DNA of 64,000 nucleotides from Enterococcus phage 9181: the sequence record MT939240.1; one strand, written 5' to 3'. The stretch's first letter is position 1. Each line of letters opens with the position of its first letter. The notes under the pieces were generated by a model. The model had not been told where the DNA came from, did not search any database, and saw nothing but the letters and a program-made list of their open reading frames with translations. Both the position numbers and the translations under genes were made by a program. This document shows, one piece after another, positions 5,421-41,428 of this stretch.

Positions 5421-6050
5421 ATTATTATTGATAAATAAGATGACATTTTGAGTCACATGCAAGGTAGCTGCGGGCACAGTTATCTTGCTTCTCTTAGGGG
5501 AGTGGCGTGAGGCATACGCACCGTGGAAGACACGGGGAAGTCAATAATTCATGAATAAACCTTCCATTATCTCTGGTTCGAATCCAGTCTTCCCTATAAC
5601 CTACAAAAGTAGGTCAATTAATTGGCGGTGGTTGCACGCCCCTTGATGATCGTTCGCTCAGTAACACGGTTGTCATTAACTCAATTAAGATGTTAAGCCT
5701 GAGCCATCTAACGAGAGTGACTGGTTGCATACGCCATGGACAAATGCGATCGAGGTTCCGTGCTAGTGCCTTAAGGGTAGCTCCCATAGCACCTTACATA
5801 TTTCCGTGACAAAGAGTTGTAAGAAGTGTATTCCTCTTTGGTTCGACTAGTCTTTACTAGCTCGTACGAGTTCGCAAGAAACTTAGGCAGACGTGCCCTT
5901 CCCACAAGTCAGCCGGTCAGGTGGGTTGCAGCGGATGTTCTCGTTGAAGCTGTCGTAAAGTGGACACCCTTGACCACTATAAATAAAGTTGCATAGGGGC
6001 GGAGACGTGGTAGTTAACCCTTGGGCATAAGCTTCTCTGCTCAAGTAAAT

Positions 6051-6121
6051 AGGTGAGTAGTGTAATGGTATCACAACGGACTCCAAATCCGTTAATGAGG
6101 GTTCGACTCCTTCCTTGCCTG
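6051..6121 (+). tRNA. tRNA-Trp (anticodon CCA)
   Basis: Hand-folded. The acceptor AGGTGAG/CTTGCCT forms 7 bp with 2 GU pairs. The anticodon arm is ACGGA-CTCCAAA-TCCGT. The T arm is GAGGG-TTCGACT-CCTTC. The D arm is GTGT..AATGG. No CCA is encoded. Confidence 0.6.
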
Positions 6122-6125
6122 TTAT

Positions 6126-6197
6126 AGCCACGTGGTGTAATGGAAAGCACAACAGACTTCTAATCTGTTAGTGGAGGTTCAAATCCTTCCGTGGCTG
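6126..6197 (+). tRNA. tRNA-Arg (anticodon UCU)
   Basis: Hand-folded. The acceptor AGCCACG/CGTGGCT is a perfect 7 bp. The D stem is GTGT/GCAC. The anticodon arm is ACAGA-CTTCTAA-TCTGT. The T arm is GGAGG-TTCAAAT-CCTTC. Confidence 0.65.
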
Positions 6198-6679
6198 TTG
6201 GAATGGCGATGGGTAACATGGACTGTCCGCCACCCAAGATGTGCTGCTTTCATACATCTAAAAGATGAGCCCTCGGTGCAGGTCGTTGAAAAAGCTTAGT
6301 ACTTTGTCTTCTATATGGGGACTTGGTAAGATGAGCCCTGACATTGGCTATCTCGTCATAGCCCTTGTAACCACGCCACGATTCTTTCGACAAAATACAT
6401 GGATTTCCGTGGTGGTGTGGGATTTGTTAGTTGGCAAGCAACTTTAAAACTTGATATTAGAGCGAGACTTAATGGCTCGTCAGTCAGATAAGACAGAAAC
6501 ATCAGTGGTTGGAGCTTTTACACTTAAAACAAAAAGATGGATAAGTTAGGCGTTACTTGTGAAGTGTTGCTAGAAGTTGATCGCTCTGGTGGGAGGTGCA
6601 AGTCCTCTCACGCCTATTGGGCAAACGCCCATTACCACATAAGGTTGAAATTCCTTGCATTTTTCATTCCTCCCTTTTG

Positions 6680-27958: not shown

Positions 27959-28551
27959 CTTGAAGGACTTTATCAAAGCGGACAACATTAAGCTTAGTCG
28001 AGAAGAAGTCAAAGAGTTTTTGCAAAGCTTTCTTGACATTAAGGAAGGCGAAGAATGGGCACAGGTAGAGGACTTTCCCTAAATACTTTGTGAGCACCTT
28101 TGGCAGAGTGCTTTCCTTGAAGACTAGCAATGTTAAATTTATTGGCACGAAGCCTAATCATACGTTTGGGTATACGGGTATTACACTAATTAGTGCTAAT
28201 AGTAAAAGGAGAACCACCTTGCACAGAATCGTGGCAGAAACTTTTATCCCAAAGCCACCAGAGTGGAGAGAAGATTGGCATGTAAATCACATCTCAGGAG
28301 ACCCTACTAATAATTCAGTTACCAACTTAGAGTGGTGCACTGCAAGTGAAAATTATTTACATCCTAACTGTAACCGTAAACGCTCTAAAAAAGTTCGTCG
28401 GATAAGCATTGAAGACGGATCGACAGAAATTTTTCTCAATGCCTCTGTAGCGGCTAGATCAGTTGGTGGTAGGGCTTCAGAGGTTTGGCGAAAGTGTAAT
28501 AAAGCCTCTAAAAAATTAGATTATATGAATTATTTTTGGGAGTGGGCTTAG
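27948..28551 (+). pseudogene. HNH/NUMOD4 homing endonuclease interrupted by a +1 frame change at CCC-TAA (28077-28082). Either a programmed +1 frameshift or a pseudogene.
   Basis: The frame-3 ORF 27948-28082 ends ...GEEWAQVEDFP*. The frame-1 ORF from 28069 continues KYFVSTFGRVLSL...NHISGDPTNNSVTNLEW. Together these give a contiguous NUMOD4 motif (EEW..V..FP.Y.VS..GRV) followed by the HNH motif. Confidence 0.5.
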
Positions 28552-28608
28552 CGCCTGCTCCTATTAGCGTTTGCGAAAGATTTTTCTATCTCTTAAATTT
28601 CTCGATTA

Positions 28609-28690
28609 TTTTCCTAACCTTCAAGTTTTTAAAAAATTTTCCTAACCTTCAAGTTTTTAAAAAATTTTCCTAACCTTCAAATTTTCGTTT
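28609..28690. repeat. Tandem direct repeat, 3 copies of a 28-bp unit TTTTCCTAACCTTCAAGTTTTTAAAAAA
   Basis: Copies at 28609-28636 and 28637-28664, and a degenerate copy from 28665. Confidence 0.9.
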
Positions 28691-29033
28691 TATTTTTTTT
28701 TGACTTTCAAAAATCAAGAAATTTTTTCCTCTTAAGCTAAATTTTATACTTTTTTTCAATATACTATTTGAAATTCGTGTCATATACGAGCATTCTGGCG
28801 CCTTTTCAAAAGTCTTCCCGACCAATTACCCACTTAAAAACCTCAGGCAACGCCTCTGCCACACCTCGATCCACCACCTTGACCAAAAATGTTACGAATA
28901 CACGCATCAAAAAGCGTTTAGTTAGTTTGAACGTAACAACTTTATGATCCTTTCAATAAAAGATATTTAATAAGCATACAGCAAAGCATATTCAGGAGCA
29001 TATGAAATGCTGATTATGAGCATATGGAAACAT

Positions 29034-29195
29034 GTTCCCCAGATTTTTGAAGAACTTCACTTAAAATATAACAAAAACATCCCCAGAATTTTGCATACAC
29101 TCCCCCAGATTTTAAAAGAAAATCACATAAAACATAGTAGTGGTGTGTGCGTGTGTGCCCCCAGATTTTTTAAAAAACACACATAAAACGTAATG
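29034..29195. repeat. Dispersed direct repeats. Four copies of CCCCAGA(T/A)TTT, each followed by an A-rich run and a CAC(A/T)TAAAAC box.
   Basis: Copies at 29037, 29081, 29102 and 29158. Confidence 0.85.
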
Positions 29196-29552
29196 AAAAA
29201 CACTTACTTGAAAAGCTATCAAAATAACACTTTTTAAGTCAAAATTAAAGGAAAAAAATGCCCCTTTCCAGATCAATAAAATAACGAACTTCCTACCGAA
29301 AACATTAAAACCTTTAAAAGCGCCCTATTTTGCACACGTAAAAAAGCCTTGAAAGCCTTGATGTTATTGGGTTTGTGGCTGTTTTTAGTGTCCAATTTGT
29401 AAAAGTTTCTACTATTAAAAGCCACAAAAAAGAACGCCAAAAAACTTTTTAGGGAAAATAAGAGAAAACTCTTGTATTTATTTTCGATATGTATATAATA
29501 AAGAGTGTAGAGAACAACAAAACAAAAATAACAGCAAAAAGGGGGTTTTGGT

Positions 29553-29889: not shown

Positions 29890-29992
29890 AAAAGATTTTA
29901 AAAAGGACTTGCGAAGCAAGCGCCAAAATGCTATCATGAAAAAGTAGTCAAAAGGTTATAAAAAACTAACTTATAAAAAGGGGTTTTCAAAA

Positions 29993-30400
29993 ATGAAAAT
30001 TATTAAAACAGTAGAAAAACTTATTGAACGTGCAGAAAGAAAAGGCGTCGCAACTTTAAATAGAAAAGTAAATCAAGGTTACGGCGTTTATTACACTAGT
30101 GAAGTTTATCGAGTGGAAAAAGAGGGCAATATTTTCACGCTTTACCACTACGAAACAAAAACATGCCAGATTGACACAGCAACAGAGGAAATTTTGTATG
30201 TTTATGGTGAAAGCGTAAGCGATGCGGATAGCATTTTTACTTTTTTACATTATTTCGATATCGTGCTATCGTTTGGCTATAAACCAGTAAACGGTGGGTT
30301 TTATGCCAGCGTTAACGGTAAACAAATATTTATAGATGACTTTGACCGATTGGAAAACTTCACCAAAGCAATTAAAAAAGAAATTAAAACTAACTTATAA
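29993..30400 (+). CDS. Hypothetical protein (135 aa), first cassette-leader gene
   Basis: Preceded by the conserved leader AACTAACTTATAAAAAGGGGTTTTCAAAAATG. Confidence 0.6.
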   Translation: MKIIKTVEKLIERAERKGVATLNRKVNQGYGVYYTSEVYRVEKEGNIFTLYHYETKTCQIDTATEEILYVYGESVSDADSIFTFLHYFDIVLSFGYKPVNGGFYASVNGKQIFIDDFDRLENFTKAIKKEIKTNL

Positions 30401-32562: not shown

Positions 32563-32672
32563 AAAAACTAGAGAGGTTGGCAAGTTATACTTGTAAGCCT
32601 CTTTTTAATATGCTAATATAAAGGAGTAGTCAAAGAGCTATAAAAACTAACTTATAAAAAGGGGTTTTCAAA

Positions 32673-33122
32673 ATGAAAAAACTAACAACGCTAATCATTA
32701 TTACACTGGGAACGGTTCTGGCAACCTTTGCCACACCTCAAGAAACAAAGGCGGACACACTAAACGAATACACGGGAACGGCGTTCGCAAAAACTTTTAA
32801 AGTTGAAATGAATAAAAAAGAATACTTGCTAGCGATTGGGCAATCTGATTTTTATAGCTTCATACCTATGGAAAAAGCGAAGGAATTGGATATAAAAGAA
32901 GGACATATCTATAATATGTATTTTATGCGTGATAGTTATGAAGTATTTGCGATAGTTGACTATTCGGCGCCTCAATTTAAAGAGGGTAAAGACATCAAAG
33001 CACTACTTAACAACAATAAGAATTTCACGAAAGAGAATATCAAAGCAACAATCAAGGCGGAAGAAGATAACGCTATTCAGTGGGACTTAGGTATTACAAT
33101 GGACAAGATAGCAAGCTTATAA
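32673..33122 (+). CDS. Secreted protein with signal peptide (149 aa), third cassette-leader gene
   Basis: Same conserved leader. Starts MKKLTTLIIITLGTVLATFATPQETKA with an AxA-type cleavage site. A terminator follows. Confidence 0.6.
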   Translation: MKKLTTLIIITLGTVLATFATPQETKADTLNEYTGTAFAKTFKVEMNKKEYLLAIGQSDFYSFIPMEKAKELDIKEGHIYNMYFMRDSYEVFAIVDYSAPQFKEGKDIKALLNNNKNFTKENIKATIKAEEDNAIQWDLGITMDKIASL

Positions 33123-33152
33123 AAGAGCTAACAAAGATTTAACGAGGGGCGT

Positions 33153-33180
33153 TTGATACGCCTCTTTTTTATGCCCTTAA
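33153..33180 (+). terminator. Rho-independent terminator
   Basis: GAGGCGT-TTGAT-ACGCCTC followed by TTTTTT. Confidence 0.65.
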
Positions 33181-34394
33181 ATACTACTAACTAACGAAGC
33201 ATATGAGAACATTAAGCGACCAACGGACAAGCGACGGAATAAACAGGCGCTTATAATGCTCGTGTGTGCAATGATCTAATAAGGATACGGGAAGGCGTGT
33301 GTACTCCTTTAATAAGAGGCGTTTAAAATCCTTATAATATAGTTATGGGATAAGCTTGTGGGTTATGTAATGGATACACCTTTGACACACCCCCCCACTG
33401 ATTGGCTGCCAGCAAGAAGCCCCTCACGGTAACCCTATATAATACTATATTAAAAGCCTCGCAGAACGTACGAGAAGCCTCTCTAATGTAATAGGTAAGT
33501 ATATCATAATACTATTAAAAAGGTGGCAAAGTGTCTCTTTTGTAATAGTTAAAGGTAGCCCCATTTATTAGGCGTTAAGATAATCATCTGGCAATCATTT
33601 TCGGGAGGGGGCTATTTTATGCACGGGGCTTTTTGTGGTGGGCATTAGATTGGTGGGGCATAGCTTTGTCGGGGGCTTCTTATTGTGGTGGTTAAATAGT
33701 TTGCAAAGGTTTGGCTTTCCTTTGACGATACTGTTGTGATCCTTTTGAAATGGTAGTGGACTACGGACTCACACACCTAAAACACAATAGGGGTCGGGAG
33801 GTGTGGCAAAGGATCGGACACCCTACTAATCTCCCTACCATATTAATGGGATAATCGAGGCATGACCACGCCACACACAACGCCCCATTCATGCCCTCTA
33901 TAGTAAGGTGTATATGATGGGCTTCTCTTAGTTTACATAATGTACATTATACAAAGTAGTTTAATATATTAAGATAGCCTTGCCACGGCATGCATAGGGT
34001 AGCACCACACCACCACACACACGACCACGACAAGGCATGACCATCACTTCATAATAACAACAGCACACACACCGCCCGTCACACCACCACACACCACGAG
34101 CCACGCACACAGGTGAATGACCATAGCATAACAGAACGGCAGGCACCCCGAAGGGAGGGGGTAACTTAAAATTTTTGACGCGAGCCCGTGGACACTCAGT
34201 CTCTTGGAAATTTCGGATTTTCCCAAAAGGGGTCGTCAATTTTATTTTTTCTGGATTTCCTAAAGGGGCTCCGAAGCCTTTGCAATACCCTTACACACGA
34301 GGCGTTCACACAAGCTTTACACCTGATCCCACACTAGGCTTCACACACAAGTAATACACACACGGAGTGAAGAAAAGGTTACACATGAGCAATG

Positions 34395-34508
34395 CTAAAC
34401 GCCGCTCTTATTATCATTCTGATGATACTTTCTAAGTGATCTTGTTGCCAACCATCTTCCGATAAACGCCCCAATAGTTACCCACACCACTATCGTAAAT
34501 ACTCTCAC
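34395..34508 (-). CDS. Small membrane peptide (37 aa, GTG start)
   Basis: Strong RBS AGGAGG lies 6 nt upstream of the GTG on the minus strand. Confidence 0.35.
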   Translation of the reverse strand: MRVFTIVVWVTIGAFIGRWLATRSLRKYHQNDNKSGV

Positions 34509-34697
34509 AGCAAACTCCTCCTATATAAATCTAATAGCTTCTTTTACAGGCTCTGCGAACGGCAAGAACCTTGGGTCAATGTCTTCAATTTCCTTCTTAG
34601 TTAACTGGTAACCAGACTTACACCAGTAGCGTAGCTCTTCACTAGGAACCATCTTATAGTCATTTCGATCAGTGTTTACTTTAACGAGATACTGTCC

Positions 34698-35060
34698 TCA
34701 GATAATGACTTCGAAACGCTTCTCTCGATCCACTTCATAACCAACCTCCAAGGCTTTGAAAAAGGTCTTGACATTATGGTTTGATCCAAGCCATTCAGCT
34801 AGGTCTTCATCACAATCCTTGTTGTTGATAGCCTGCTCTATGCTAAAGGTGAATCTACTAATAGATTTTTCCATCCGCTTGATAAACTCACCCACATATG
34901 GTGGCACTACTGGTTTCTCGAATGGGGCACCATCAATCTGTTCTACAACACACAAAGCATCCTCATAGGCAGCTTTCCTAGAAACGCTCTCTATATCATC
35001 CCATTCCTGTAAGTATCCAATAACGTTTTTTAACTGTCTGACTGCTTCTTGTTTGTCCAT
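34698..35060 (-). CDS. DUF1642-like phage protein (120 aa)
   Basis: Shares the KPVVP.YV.E motif with the ORFs at 39253 and 40702. Confidence 0.55.
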   Translation of the reverse strand: MDKQEAVRQLKNVIGYLQEWDDIESVSRKAAYEDALCVVEQIDGAPFEKPVVPPYVGEFIKRMEKSISRFTFSIEQAINNKDCDEDLAEWLGSNHNVKTFFKALEVGYEVDREKRFEVII

Positions 35061-35152
35061 CTAATTCCCCCTAATACTTTATACTCCTTATTATACAGTA
35101 TCAAAAGGGTTTCTGTCAAGCACAAAAAAGACACCCTTAAGGTGCCTCTTGG

Positions 35153-35398
35153 TTAGTCTAGTCCATGGTAATACTGTATTTCCTGTTGCTTGCCAATGAT
35201 CACATAAAGGATATTACTGTTTGTAGTCGGCGTGATAACAGTCCCTCGATTGGAGAATTGTACAATACGGCTTTTAAACTGATTTGATACTTGGTCTGAT
35301 GCCGTAGCTCCGTACAAGCTTTCCTTAACATAATAAGATAGCTTTTCCCCATCCTTGAAGACAATGGTTACCTCTCTGCACTTGTCACTTCTGCTCAT
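35153..35398 (-). CDS. Hypothetical protein (81 aa)
   Basis: Overlapping stop/start with the upstream gene. Confidence 0.5.
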   Translation of the reverse strand: MSRSDKCREVTIVFKDGEKLSYYVKESLYGATASDQVSNQFKSRIVQFSNRGTVITPTTNSNILYVIIGKQQEIQYYHGLD

Positions 35399-40498: not shown

Positions 40499-40705
40499 TC
40501 AATCGTATTCAGCATCGCCTAGCTCAATATCATGTCCACAGTTCTGGCACGTAATTGCTCCAAAATTTCCGTAGTAAAGTTCACCTTCACCAAAAGCACC
40601 AGCGATTTTCTTCCAGTCTATTTCGATATGCTCGTCACATCTTGGGCAATCAAAGGAAATATAACTTGGTGTAGAGCAAATAGTGTAATCTGCTTTGCCA
40701 CTCAT
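40499..40705 (-). CDS. Zinc-ribbon protein (68 aa, two CxxC pairs)
   Basis: CPRC...CQNC. Confidence 0.5.
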   Translation of the reverse strand: MSGKADYTICSTPSYISFDCPRCDEHIEIDWKKIAGAFGEGELYYGNFGAITCQNCGHDIELGDAEYD

Positions 40706-41226
40706 ACTTTCTCTACGCTCCCATCAACCAACGTAGCGACTGCCTCGGCTTTTGTGCGGTCATCAAAAACAAATACATCATCATAAAATTTATATGCGGC
40801 TCCGTCTGCTTCAAGCGAATAAAGTGAAACCCAAGAGCTAAAATAATAATCGTTAGGTAGCTTAACCACCCACCGCGGCTCTTTCTCGACTTCGTAGCCG
40901 TCTTTCATGCGGATGAGGGTTTCGATTGGATTGTTTTCGGATTGTTGAATCCAATTCAACATCCCTTGCTCAGCAGAACCATAAGAATCTACACACAATT
41001 CCCAAATAAGAAATTCTAACTCATCTTTATTCTCTTCAAACCACTCCGCCACAAACTTCGGCACCACTGGCTTCTGTGGTTCGTCCAACTGTTTTGCTAG
41101 CTTAAGAGCGTGGTTATATGATTCGAATTTTGATCTCCAGAATCCCTCGCTTACACCTTCTTTAATGGCTCTCCACGCATTTTCCTCAAGCTCTTCTAAT
41201 TTCTTAATAAATTCCTGTTTATTCAT
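40702..41226 (-). CDS. DUF1642-like phage protein (174 aa; start MNKQE)
   Basis: Contains KPVVPKFVAEWFEENKDELEFLIWELC. Same conserved RBS/start as the ORF at 40487. Confidence 0.55.
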   Translation of the reverse strand: MNKQEFIKKLEELEENAWRAIKEGVSEGFWRSKFESYNHALKLAKQLDEPQKPVVPKFVAEWFEENKDELEFLIWELCVDSYGSAEQGMLNWIQQSENNPIETLIRMKDGYEVEKEPRWVVKLPNDYYFSSWVSLYSLEADGAAYKFYDDVFVFDDRTKAEAVATLVDGSVEKV

Positions 41227-41428
41227 CCGCTTCCTCCCATGATTCAATGATTTCAATAAATAATTGGTTATCTAACGCCATTACAAGCGTGACATCGTAA
41301 AACCAGTATTTCAAAGGTAAGTTCTGTGAGATATCCATTACTTTTCCTGTAAAAATGTTCTTGTTTTGGTAACGAATAATCACCGTTTCAACGTCGTTCA
41401 ATACGGCTAACAGTGCTCCTAAGGTCAT
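41219..41428 (-). CDS. Hypothetical protein (69 aa)
   Basis: Overlapping start. Confidence 0.4.
   Translation of the reverse strand: MTLGALLAVLNDVETVIIRYQNKNIFTGKVMDISQNLPLKYWFYDVTLVMALDNQLFIEIIESWEEADE

Follow-up and report, generated by a model that had tools for sequence, protein, structure and literature searches.

A dif-like Xer site within the predicted terminal repeat of Enterococcus phage 9181

In phage P1, two direct loxP sites in the terminal redundancy allow Cre to cyclise the genome after injection independently of RecA, and the plasmid sites cer (ColE1) and psi (pSC101) depend on accessory DNA of about 180 bp and on the host protein PepA together with ArgR or ArcA. In the literature searched, exploitation of Xer recombination was found for filamentous phages, gokushoviruses, non-tailed phages and plasmids only, and the sites of integrative mobile elements exploiting Xer (IMEX) often possess degenerate XerD arms and longer cores (PMC3025954). 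Short direct terminal repeats (DTRs) have been described in Saphexavirus phages: TV16 (MN939408) carries annotated left and right direct repeats of 340 bp and SE (PP583004) a DTR of 343 bp, the two copies being identical in both phages, and PhageTerm assigned the class "DTR (short)" to three Saphexaviruses (PMC11465766). Here we analysed a stretch of 64,000 nt of Enterococcus phage 9181 (MT939240.1; hereafter the window), which represents most of the genome of a lytic-type Enterococcus siphophage, and found that a gene-free block at 33123–34394 contains a 28-bp dif-like XerC/XerD site inside a predicted terminal repeat. Our literature search returned no description of a tailed lytic phage, or of a terminal repeat, that carries dif, an absence that is no proof of novelty. 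We propose, with a probability of roughly 60%, that the chromosome ends (concatemer junction) of a linear genome with short direct terminal repeats lie in this block, which bears a host-type Xer site that may serve end joining or cyclisation.

The dif-like site and its private cores

The site (33930–33957, minus strand, ACTTTGTATAA-TGTACA-TTATGTAAACT) has the layout typical of dif, with an 11-bp XerC arm (ACTTTGTATAA, 33957–33947), a 6-bp core (TGTACA, 33946–33941) and an 11-bp XerD arm (TTATGTAAACT, 33940–33930) showing partial dyad symmetry. It is the best-conserved element of the block and was missing from the features listed in the initial annotation. A search of IMG/VR with the conserved palindrome returned Saphexaviruses and unrelated low-GC contigs carrying TAGTTTACATAATATATATTATACAAAGT, which on the opposite strand reads ACTTTGTATAA-TATATA-TTATGTAAACT and matches the published dif of Enterococcus mundtii. 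In E. mundtii QU 25, dif is a single chromosomal site (ACTTTGTATAATATATATTATGTAAACT) located at the GC-skew shift (PMC4131831). The two mismatches of the window site to the Enterococcus dif are confined to the core, and the number of matches of this quality expected by chance is 0; all 22 of the 22 arm bases are identical to those of dif from E. mundtii, E. villorum, E. gallinarum and E. thailandicus. In a scan of hosts covering one genome per species, the host 28-mer was found, among the matches listed, once per fetched locus in these four species, Enterococcus sp., Vagococcus and Tetragenococcus, and the dif sites of other Bacilli among the matches listed differed at positions 5–7 of the XerC arm only. 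Neither a tyrosine recombinase nor a recognisable Xer activator was found in the 32 open reading frames (ORFs) tested against Pfam and PHROGs. In our estimate, 33930–33957 is very probably a functional Xer site.

Relatives of the window include two Logan assemblies, SRR24907945_3953 (L018; 68,099 nt) and SRR22802270_262 (71,192 nt), which are 99% and 96.7% identical to it respectively, and four E. hirae phages (EH802P1, EH802P2, EH93P1 and EH93P2; hereafter the EH phages), which are about 85% identical in nucleotide sequence over the region. In close relatives the block is 83–85% identical to that of the window versus 84–93% for the flanking genes; these relatives, in which the block is as similar as its flanking genes, are little informative on their own. 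The site was compared in 17 phage sequences from five lineages and Bacillus phage Anath, to which the Logan contig L234 was added. Across these sequences the XerD arm is invariant, and the XerC arm varies at positions 5–7 only (TGT, CGC, AGT, GGT or TGG), which are also the variable positions of bacterial dif sites. The core is TGTACA in the window and EG103P3, CATGTA in L018, L234 and the EH phages, TGTGTA in all Saphexaviruses, TAGCTA in EG103P2 and TACACA in EC55P2. Conservation decreases from the XerD arm over the XerC arm to the core, and the flanks of the site are unrelated between lineages. The host core TATATA is never present in the Enterococcus-phage sites compared; all five of their cores have one mismatch to it in each half, and in four of these cores the change is a double transition, so that pyrimidines and purines still alternate.

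The core also differs between close relatives. Between the window and L018, 71 of the approximately 73 differences in 32644–35200 are located in a patch of about 420 bp (33680–34098) that surrounds the site, and they include the dif core and the XerC arm. The resemblance of this patch to EH93P1 in places suggests that the segment 33680–34098 may have been exchanged between co-circulating phages. EG103P2 (L016) and EG103P3 (L149), which have the same E. gallinarum strain as host and are 87% identical across the junction, carry ACTTAGTATAA-TAGCTA and ACTTTGTATAA-TGTACA, respectively, and the 28-mer of EG103P3 is identical to that of the window. Heterology in the central region blocks productive exchange between sites of tyrosine recombinases, as is the case for spacer variants of lox and FRT and for Xer sites. 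Since heterologous cores should prevent productive exchange with host dif, the pattern as read from the sequences fits selection for XerC/XerD binding combined with recombination between phage sites only, which would spare the host chromosome.

Scanning IMG/VR for ACTTNNNATAA-N6-TTATGTAAACT revealed 97 Firmicutes-type dif-like sites, 89 of them with non-host cores, on many unrelated viral contigs of 4–129 kb. About 80% of these sites have no overlapping ORF of at least 80 aa. One variant, ACTTCCTATAA-CCTTAA-TTATGTAAACT, recurs 16 times on contigs of about 32–44% G+C, many of which come from isolate genomes, and the dif-bearing contig L178 (~129 kb) had no relative in the phage collection. Bacillus phage Anath (MG983742, 51036–51063) possesses ACTTCGTATAA-TATCTA-TTATGTAAACT, with perfect arms, at a convergent junction. 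Dif-like sites may therefore reach well beyond this phage group. Weak dif-like BLAST hits in Bacillus phage P59 and Staphylococcus Twort-like phages failed the arm consensus and were discarded.

Probable genome ends and the predicted terminal repeat

A role of the block in packaging, one of several offered by the initial annotation, is supported by homology to the annotated Saphexavirus terminal repeats and by the termini of sequence records. A counterpart of the block, non-coding and about 1.2 kb long, is found at the convergent junction of SAP6, and a BLAST search with this counterpart matched 73 records, many of which end within it. The records of BC611 and fHoEfa06 stop at one shared base (...GGGGCGCGCGAC), and BC611 repeats about 340 nt at both record ends. 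When eight junctions (the window, two EH phages, TV16, SE, SAP6, EG103P2 and EC55P2) were aligned with MAFFT, the annotated repeats of TV16 and SE mapped to 33756–34193 of the window, which predicts a direct terminal repeat of about 438 bp with borders good to a few nt; GTGGAC is found at both predicted borders. Position and orientation of the block are the same as in SAP6, EG103P2 and EC55P2, and the junction layout is common to four lineages. The predicted repeat is present once in the window, which reads through a collapsed or concatemer-type junction, and L018 and L234 likewise read through a single copy. In TV16, SE and BC611 the annotated repeat contains the dif-like site, and by alignment the predicted repeat here does so too. 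These lines of evidence point to the block as the probable location of the genome ends. The ends of the EG103P3 record, also considered as evidence of a repeat, share a 55-nt assembly overlap only and were uninformative.

Mean identity between the window and four other lineages is 0.46 across the block, and five islands exceed it. One lies at the left repeat border (33744–33763, identity 0.65) and one is central (33931–33950, 0.85). A third, CCGAAGGGAGGGGGTAACTT (34148–34167, plus strand, 0.76), is located about 30 nt inside the right repeat border; its AGGGGGT is invariant in five lineages, and the closer relative L234 has GGGTGGGGGC. A reading of this island as FtsK-orienting polar sequences (KOPS) or as a motif like SpoIIIE recognition sequences (SRS) was rejected, as the motif is not kept in all lineages. 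The fourth island coincides with the right repeat border, where CCCGTGGAC meets ACTCAGTCTC (34184–34203, 0.74), and aligns with the terminal base of the TV16, SE, BC611 and fHoEfa06 records, which end in GCGCGCGAC; it is a candidate terminase processing site, and each of the five genomes in the window lineage has GGACACTCAGTCTC unchanged at this border. The fifth (34241–34260, 0.85) falls between the members of a direct repeat pair, GGATTTTCCCAAAAGGGG and GGATTTCCTAAAGGGG, which are 36 nt apart with a T-rich core, TCAATTTTATTTTTTCT, between them (34213–34269, plus strand; repeat family D16). This two-repeat layout is kept in Saphexavirus, EG103P2 and EC55P2 though the sequence differs, and the pair is a candidate protein-binding site for packaging recognition just outside the repeat. 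We infer that the border islands and the paired repeats are the terminase processing and recognition signals.

The block is flanked by convergent operons, as had been noted from the sequence at first reading: the last rightward stop codon is at 33122, and the last leftward ORF occupies 34395–34508. An intrinsic terminator revealed by a terminator scan (33144–33172, plus strand) ends the rightward replication-module operon and is identical in the EH phages and in L211, a relative of 70% identity. The leftward operon finishes with a 37-aa ORF (34395–34508, minus strand), which delimits the block on the right, has a GGAGGAG ribosome-binding site and is kept in EH802P2 with an in-frame 3-nt indel. 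No credible gene was found between these edges, in agreement with the initial annotation; the listed ORFs overlap low-complexity CA/GT tracts, and the longest of them (33961–34239, minus strand) is broken by 1-nt indels in the closest relatives. On the right chromosome arm, a unique non-coding spacer of about 580 nt (33173–33755) separates the last gene from the predicted repeat, and TV16 and SE have an equivalent spacer of about 630 nt before the right DTR. A second unique spacer, of about 200 nt (34194–34394), is on the left chromosome arm and has equivalents after the left DTR of TV16 and SE. The CA-rich tract described earlier is real (33990–34115, plus strand; 40.5% C, 35.7% A) and lies within the predicted repeat; it is lineage-specific, and Saphexavirus is G-rich there on the same strand. 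Small hypothetical proteins are annotated in the repeat or spacers of TV16 (MN939408, 132–347 and 484–624) and SE (PP583004, 57541–57758). Judging from the indel pattern and the lack of conservation, small ORFs annotated within the repeat and the spacers are probably spurious.

Proposed role of the site and competing readings

We propose that both gene arms would be transcribed towards the chromosome ends, and that terminase would cut and duplicate the repeat using the border islands and the outer paired repeats. Placed within the terminal repeat, the site would be present as two direct copies on every virion DNA, and these could be recombined by host XerC/XerD. An intramolecular reaction would yield a unit-length circle with one repeat, together with a repeat-length linear fragment, and the junction of this circle would be the junction found in the assemblies; an intermolecular reaction would produce a head-to-tail junction. 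Owing to its non-host core, the phage site would not engage in recombination with the host chromosome. Of these elements, the role of the site in end joining or cyclisation is put forward tentatively.

Several points weigh against this proposal. FtsK at the septum is normally required for Xer recombination at dif, and the ORFs tested revealed no activator of Xer encoded by the phage. The phage encodes a T7-like replication set (a PolA-type polymerase, a DnaB-like helicase, a primase and a Cas4-like nuclease), and it might never need a circle if its DNA replicates in linear form and uses the repeats to build concatemers. The dif sites of E. hirae and E. faecalis were not among the matches listed. 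One repeat copy is present in the window, and its borders come from alignment to relatives that are about 46% identical across the block. The Terminase_3 family of TerL also holds headful packagers such as SPP1, and PhageTerm assigned "headful" packaging to two Saphexaviruses (PMC13227665).

The alternative that survives best treats the site as one for multimer resolution, comparable to cer and psi, at which XerCD would cut circles or concatemers to monomers rather than join incoming ends, so as to provide more templates or a plasmid-like carrier state. It draws on the same evidence of a functional, self-specific Xer site, and any concatemer has direct repeats of the site at unit-length spacing. 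Moreover, dif-like sites with private cores are common in the intergenic DNA of other Firmicutes viral contigs, many of them derived from isolate genomes, in which a plasmid or prophage state could occur. However, a phage that packages from concatemers has no obvious gain from resolving them, the lineage-conserved placement inside the terminal repeat would be unneeded, and no partition or plasmid-maintenance genes were found among the ORFs tested. We consider this alternative unlikely.

Decidedly less credence is given to the possibility that the site serves as an attachment site through which XerCD would integrate the phage into host dif in the manner of IMEX, giving a supposedly strictly lytic phage a (pseudo)lysogenic state. 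CTX-phi, VGJ-phi, TLC-phi and gokushoviruses integrate in this way (PMC3025954), the arms of the phage site are identical to those of host dif, and no phage recombinase was found in the ORFs tested. Against integration speaks the core, which in every lineage mismatches TATATA in both halves and should thereby block stable strand exchange by XerC or XerD; core homology with host dif sufficient for an IMEX was found in none of the Enterococcus-phage lineages, and the cores differ even among close relatives. The IMG/VR contigs with a host-type core lack Saphexavirus-like flanks, although no systematic search for integrated copies was made.

The initial annotation had drawn attention to further motifs of the block. 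The G-rich array is present (33604–33691; 38.6% G, 10.9% C) and consists of five or six GGGGC-like G-runs spaced about 16 nt apart on the plus strand only. Relatives as distant as about 70% identity still have it: the window lineage, L211 included, places it at -330 to -260 nt from dif, Saphexavirus has it in shifted form, and the EG103P and EC55P2 lineages lack it. The array itself stands, but its description as capable of quadruplex formation is weakened: the block contains no canonical motif (four runs of three or more G with loops of ≤7 nt), and the sole candidate is a G3x4 stretch at 33625 whose loops reach 12 nt. Conservation extends to four G-runs, which are separated by loops of 10–16 nt, and repeated protein-binding sites are as likely an explanation of the array as quadruplexes. 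The duplicated ATAATACTAT(A)TTAAAAG boxes were found where they had been reported (33438–33456 and 33507–33525); they are invariant in the EH phages, each is followed by a hairpin (33457–33475 and 33511–33549, respectively), and they are possibly protein-binding sites. In L211 a single C:G to G:C double change preserves the stem of the second hairpin (ACTATTAAAAAG...CTTTTGTAATAGT). At the equivalent of 33511–33549, SAP6-type phages carry another hairpin, with ACTATTAAA in the loop. Six or more dispersed copies of (G)AGGCGTT(T/A) had been claimed, and we found only three exact AGGCGTT (33317, 33570 and 34300) and one GAGGCGTT[TA]. The core GGCGTT occurs five times, counting both strands, versus 0.9 expected at the rate of the window; its copies are irregularly spaced, one is a stem arm of the terminator, and that at 34300 is lost in EH802P2. 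The CACACCT/AGGTGTG hairpin exists, at 33773–33805 and not at 33784–33812, and is broken in the EH phages without compensation. A search of the block for tandem repeats returned none.

A replication origin, as suggested at first reading, in which repeated motifs would bind an initiator and the skewed tracts would aid unwinding or priming, is very unlikely. The block is indeed a large conserved non-coding region with a modestly enriched GGCGTT core, a conserved periodic G-run array and paired direct repeats, and the cumulative GC skew turns there. The skew turn, however, coincides with the switch of coding strand; the block has no DnaA box even with one mismatch allowed, no tandem or regular iterons and no AT-rich stretch for unwinding, its G+C (41–49%) being above the 40% of the whole window. 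A better candidate is a second non-coding block at 28552–29270, within the rightward operon, where the EH records annotate no gene. It contains a 28-nt tandem repeat (ATTTTCCTAACCTTCAAGTTTTTAAAAA, 2.8 copies, 98% identity, 28608–28685) and long A/T runs, and of the five matches to CCCCAGATTTT in the whole window, four fall here within 133 nt (29037–29169). Judged by these motifs, 28552–29270 looks far more origin-like than 33123–34394. The last suggestion of the initial annotation, a structured non-coding RNA, is, together with regulatory G-quadruplexes, the most improbable reading: the block has a higher G+C than the surrounding DNA, a strand-asymmetric and conserved G-run array and one compensatory change (hairpin 33511–33549, in L211), but Rfam searches at the gathering threshold and at E-values up to 10 returned two tRNAs elsewhere and noise in the block, folding of 33425–33600 and 33170–33760 on both strands gave z-scores of -0.11 to +0.54 versus shuffled sequence, promoter-like and terminator-like counts were at the shuffled-sequence level apart from the terminator at 33144, with no convincing promoter-terminator pair, the CACACCT hairpin is not conserved, the loops of the array exceed the length allowed in canonical quadruplexes, and two lineages lack the array.

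Gene layout, implications and comparison with known systems

The genes of the window are arranged in a rightward arm (1 to 33122), a leftward arm (46302 down to 34395) and a second rightward arm from 46458, which holds TerS, TerL and, by position, the structural genes. The first rightward arm encodes an endolysin, a primase, an RNA ligase, a DnaB-like helicase, PolA and a Cas4-like nuclease, and a DnaC/IstB-like loader in the same arm gave a weak, sub-threshold match only. The DNA polymerase is about 50% identical to that of Saphexavirus phages (SAP6, BC611 and IME-EF1), and TerL is 65% identical to SAP6 TerL over 419 aa. The 149-aa protein flanking the block and a 29-nt motif of the block had no match in IMG/VR, and tblastn with the flanking proteins returned the four EH phages or unrelated DUF1642 proteins only.

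Several further features were observed around these genes. Two adjacent tRNA genes, tRNA-Trp (CCA) and tRNA-Arg (TCT), are located at 6050–6198 in the rightward arm. Free-standing HNH endonuclease genes adjoin both non-coding blocks: an HNH_3 ORF is at 28090–28551 in the window, and in EH93P1 (L002, 7195–7692) the homology to the window stops at the left edge of the junction block, at the insertion of an I-HmuI-like gene. The DUF1642 gene adjoining the block (34521–35060, minus strand) has an in-frame TGA at codon 121 versus GGA in L018, and is split into ORFs of 120 aa and 43 aa in the window versus an intact 179 aa in L018 and L234. A second DUF1642 ORF (40702–41256, minus strand) is held in a segment of about 710 nt (40499–41210) that is missing from L018. 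An element of about 70 nt occurs twice (29925–29992 and 32605–32672), upstream of the genes starting at 29993 and 32673, with the order TGCTATCAT or TGCTAATAT (extended -10-like), AGTAGTCAAA and TATAAAAACTAACTTATAAAAAGGGGTTTTCAAAA; its sequence resembles a duplicated promoter with leader and ribosome-binding site. This repeated element is also where the Logan contig L018 breaks.

Whether the arrangement extends to a general strategy, in which lytic tailed Firmicutes phages would use heterospecific dif sites in terminal repeats and the host resolvase to cyclise or concatenate their genomes while sparing the host chromosome, is doubtful at present. If true, it would amount to a Cre-lox-like system with the recombinase outsourced to the host, would add XerC, XerD and perhaps FtsK to the host factors on which phages depend, and would give linear virion DNA a new way to reach the replicating form. 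Saphexaviruses are among the most used Enterococcus therapy candidates; a need for host factors would predict a resistance route, and arms identical to host dif are worth attention in safety assessments. For annotation, marking the block as the genome-end region sets where genomes are to be opened and removes spurious small ORFs. Dif sites with variant cores could also be used as orthogonal recombination sites in Gram-positive bacteria.

Among known systems, the DTRs of TV16 and SE share with the window the convergent-junction position and orientation, homologous border islands, the same dif-like site inside and a TerL of 65% identity. They differ in length (340–343 bp versus about 438 bp here, by alignment), in the distance from the dif site to the left repeat border (89–90 nt in Saphexavirus versus 174 nt here) and in the biased tract inside the repeat, which is G-rich in Saphexavirus and CA-rich here on the same strand. 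The chromosomal dif of Enterococcus has the same layout of 11 + 6 + 11 bp and arms identical at 22 of 22 positions, whereas the phage core is TGTACA instead of TATATA, the flanks are unrelated and the phage site is located in a terminal repeat instead of the replication terminus.

The T7 concatemer junction likewise places a short exact terminal repeat in non-coding DNA beside short repeated motifs, but the genes of T7 all point in one direction and its genome does not circularise; we know of no Xer site in T7. The plasmid sites cer and psi, like the phage site, put a XerCD core site on an extrachromosomal replicon, where it acts on the replicon itself; no accessory module of their kind is recognisable in the phage block. 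IMEX elements (CTX-phi, VGJ-phi, TLC-phi and gokushovirus prophages) also carry a dif-like site on a virus without its own recombinase. They are small single-stranded DNA or non-tailed viruses that integrate at dif, whereas the phage described here is a 68-kb tailed lytic phage with no sign of integration, and its site combines perfect arms with a heterospecific 6-bp core. P1 encodes its own recombinase, packages by headful and carries two lox sites in some virions only; in phage 9181, by comparison, the recombinase would be that of the host, and every virion would carry two sites.

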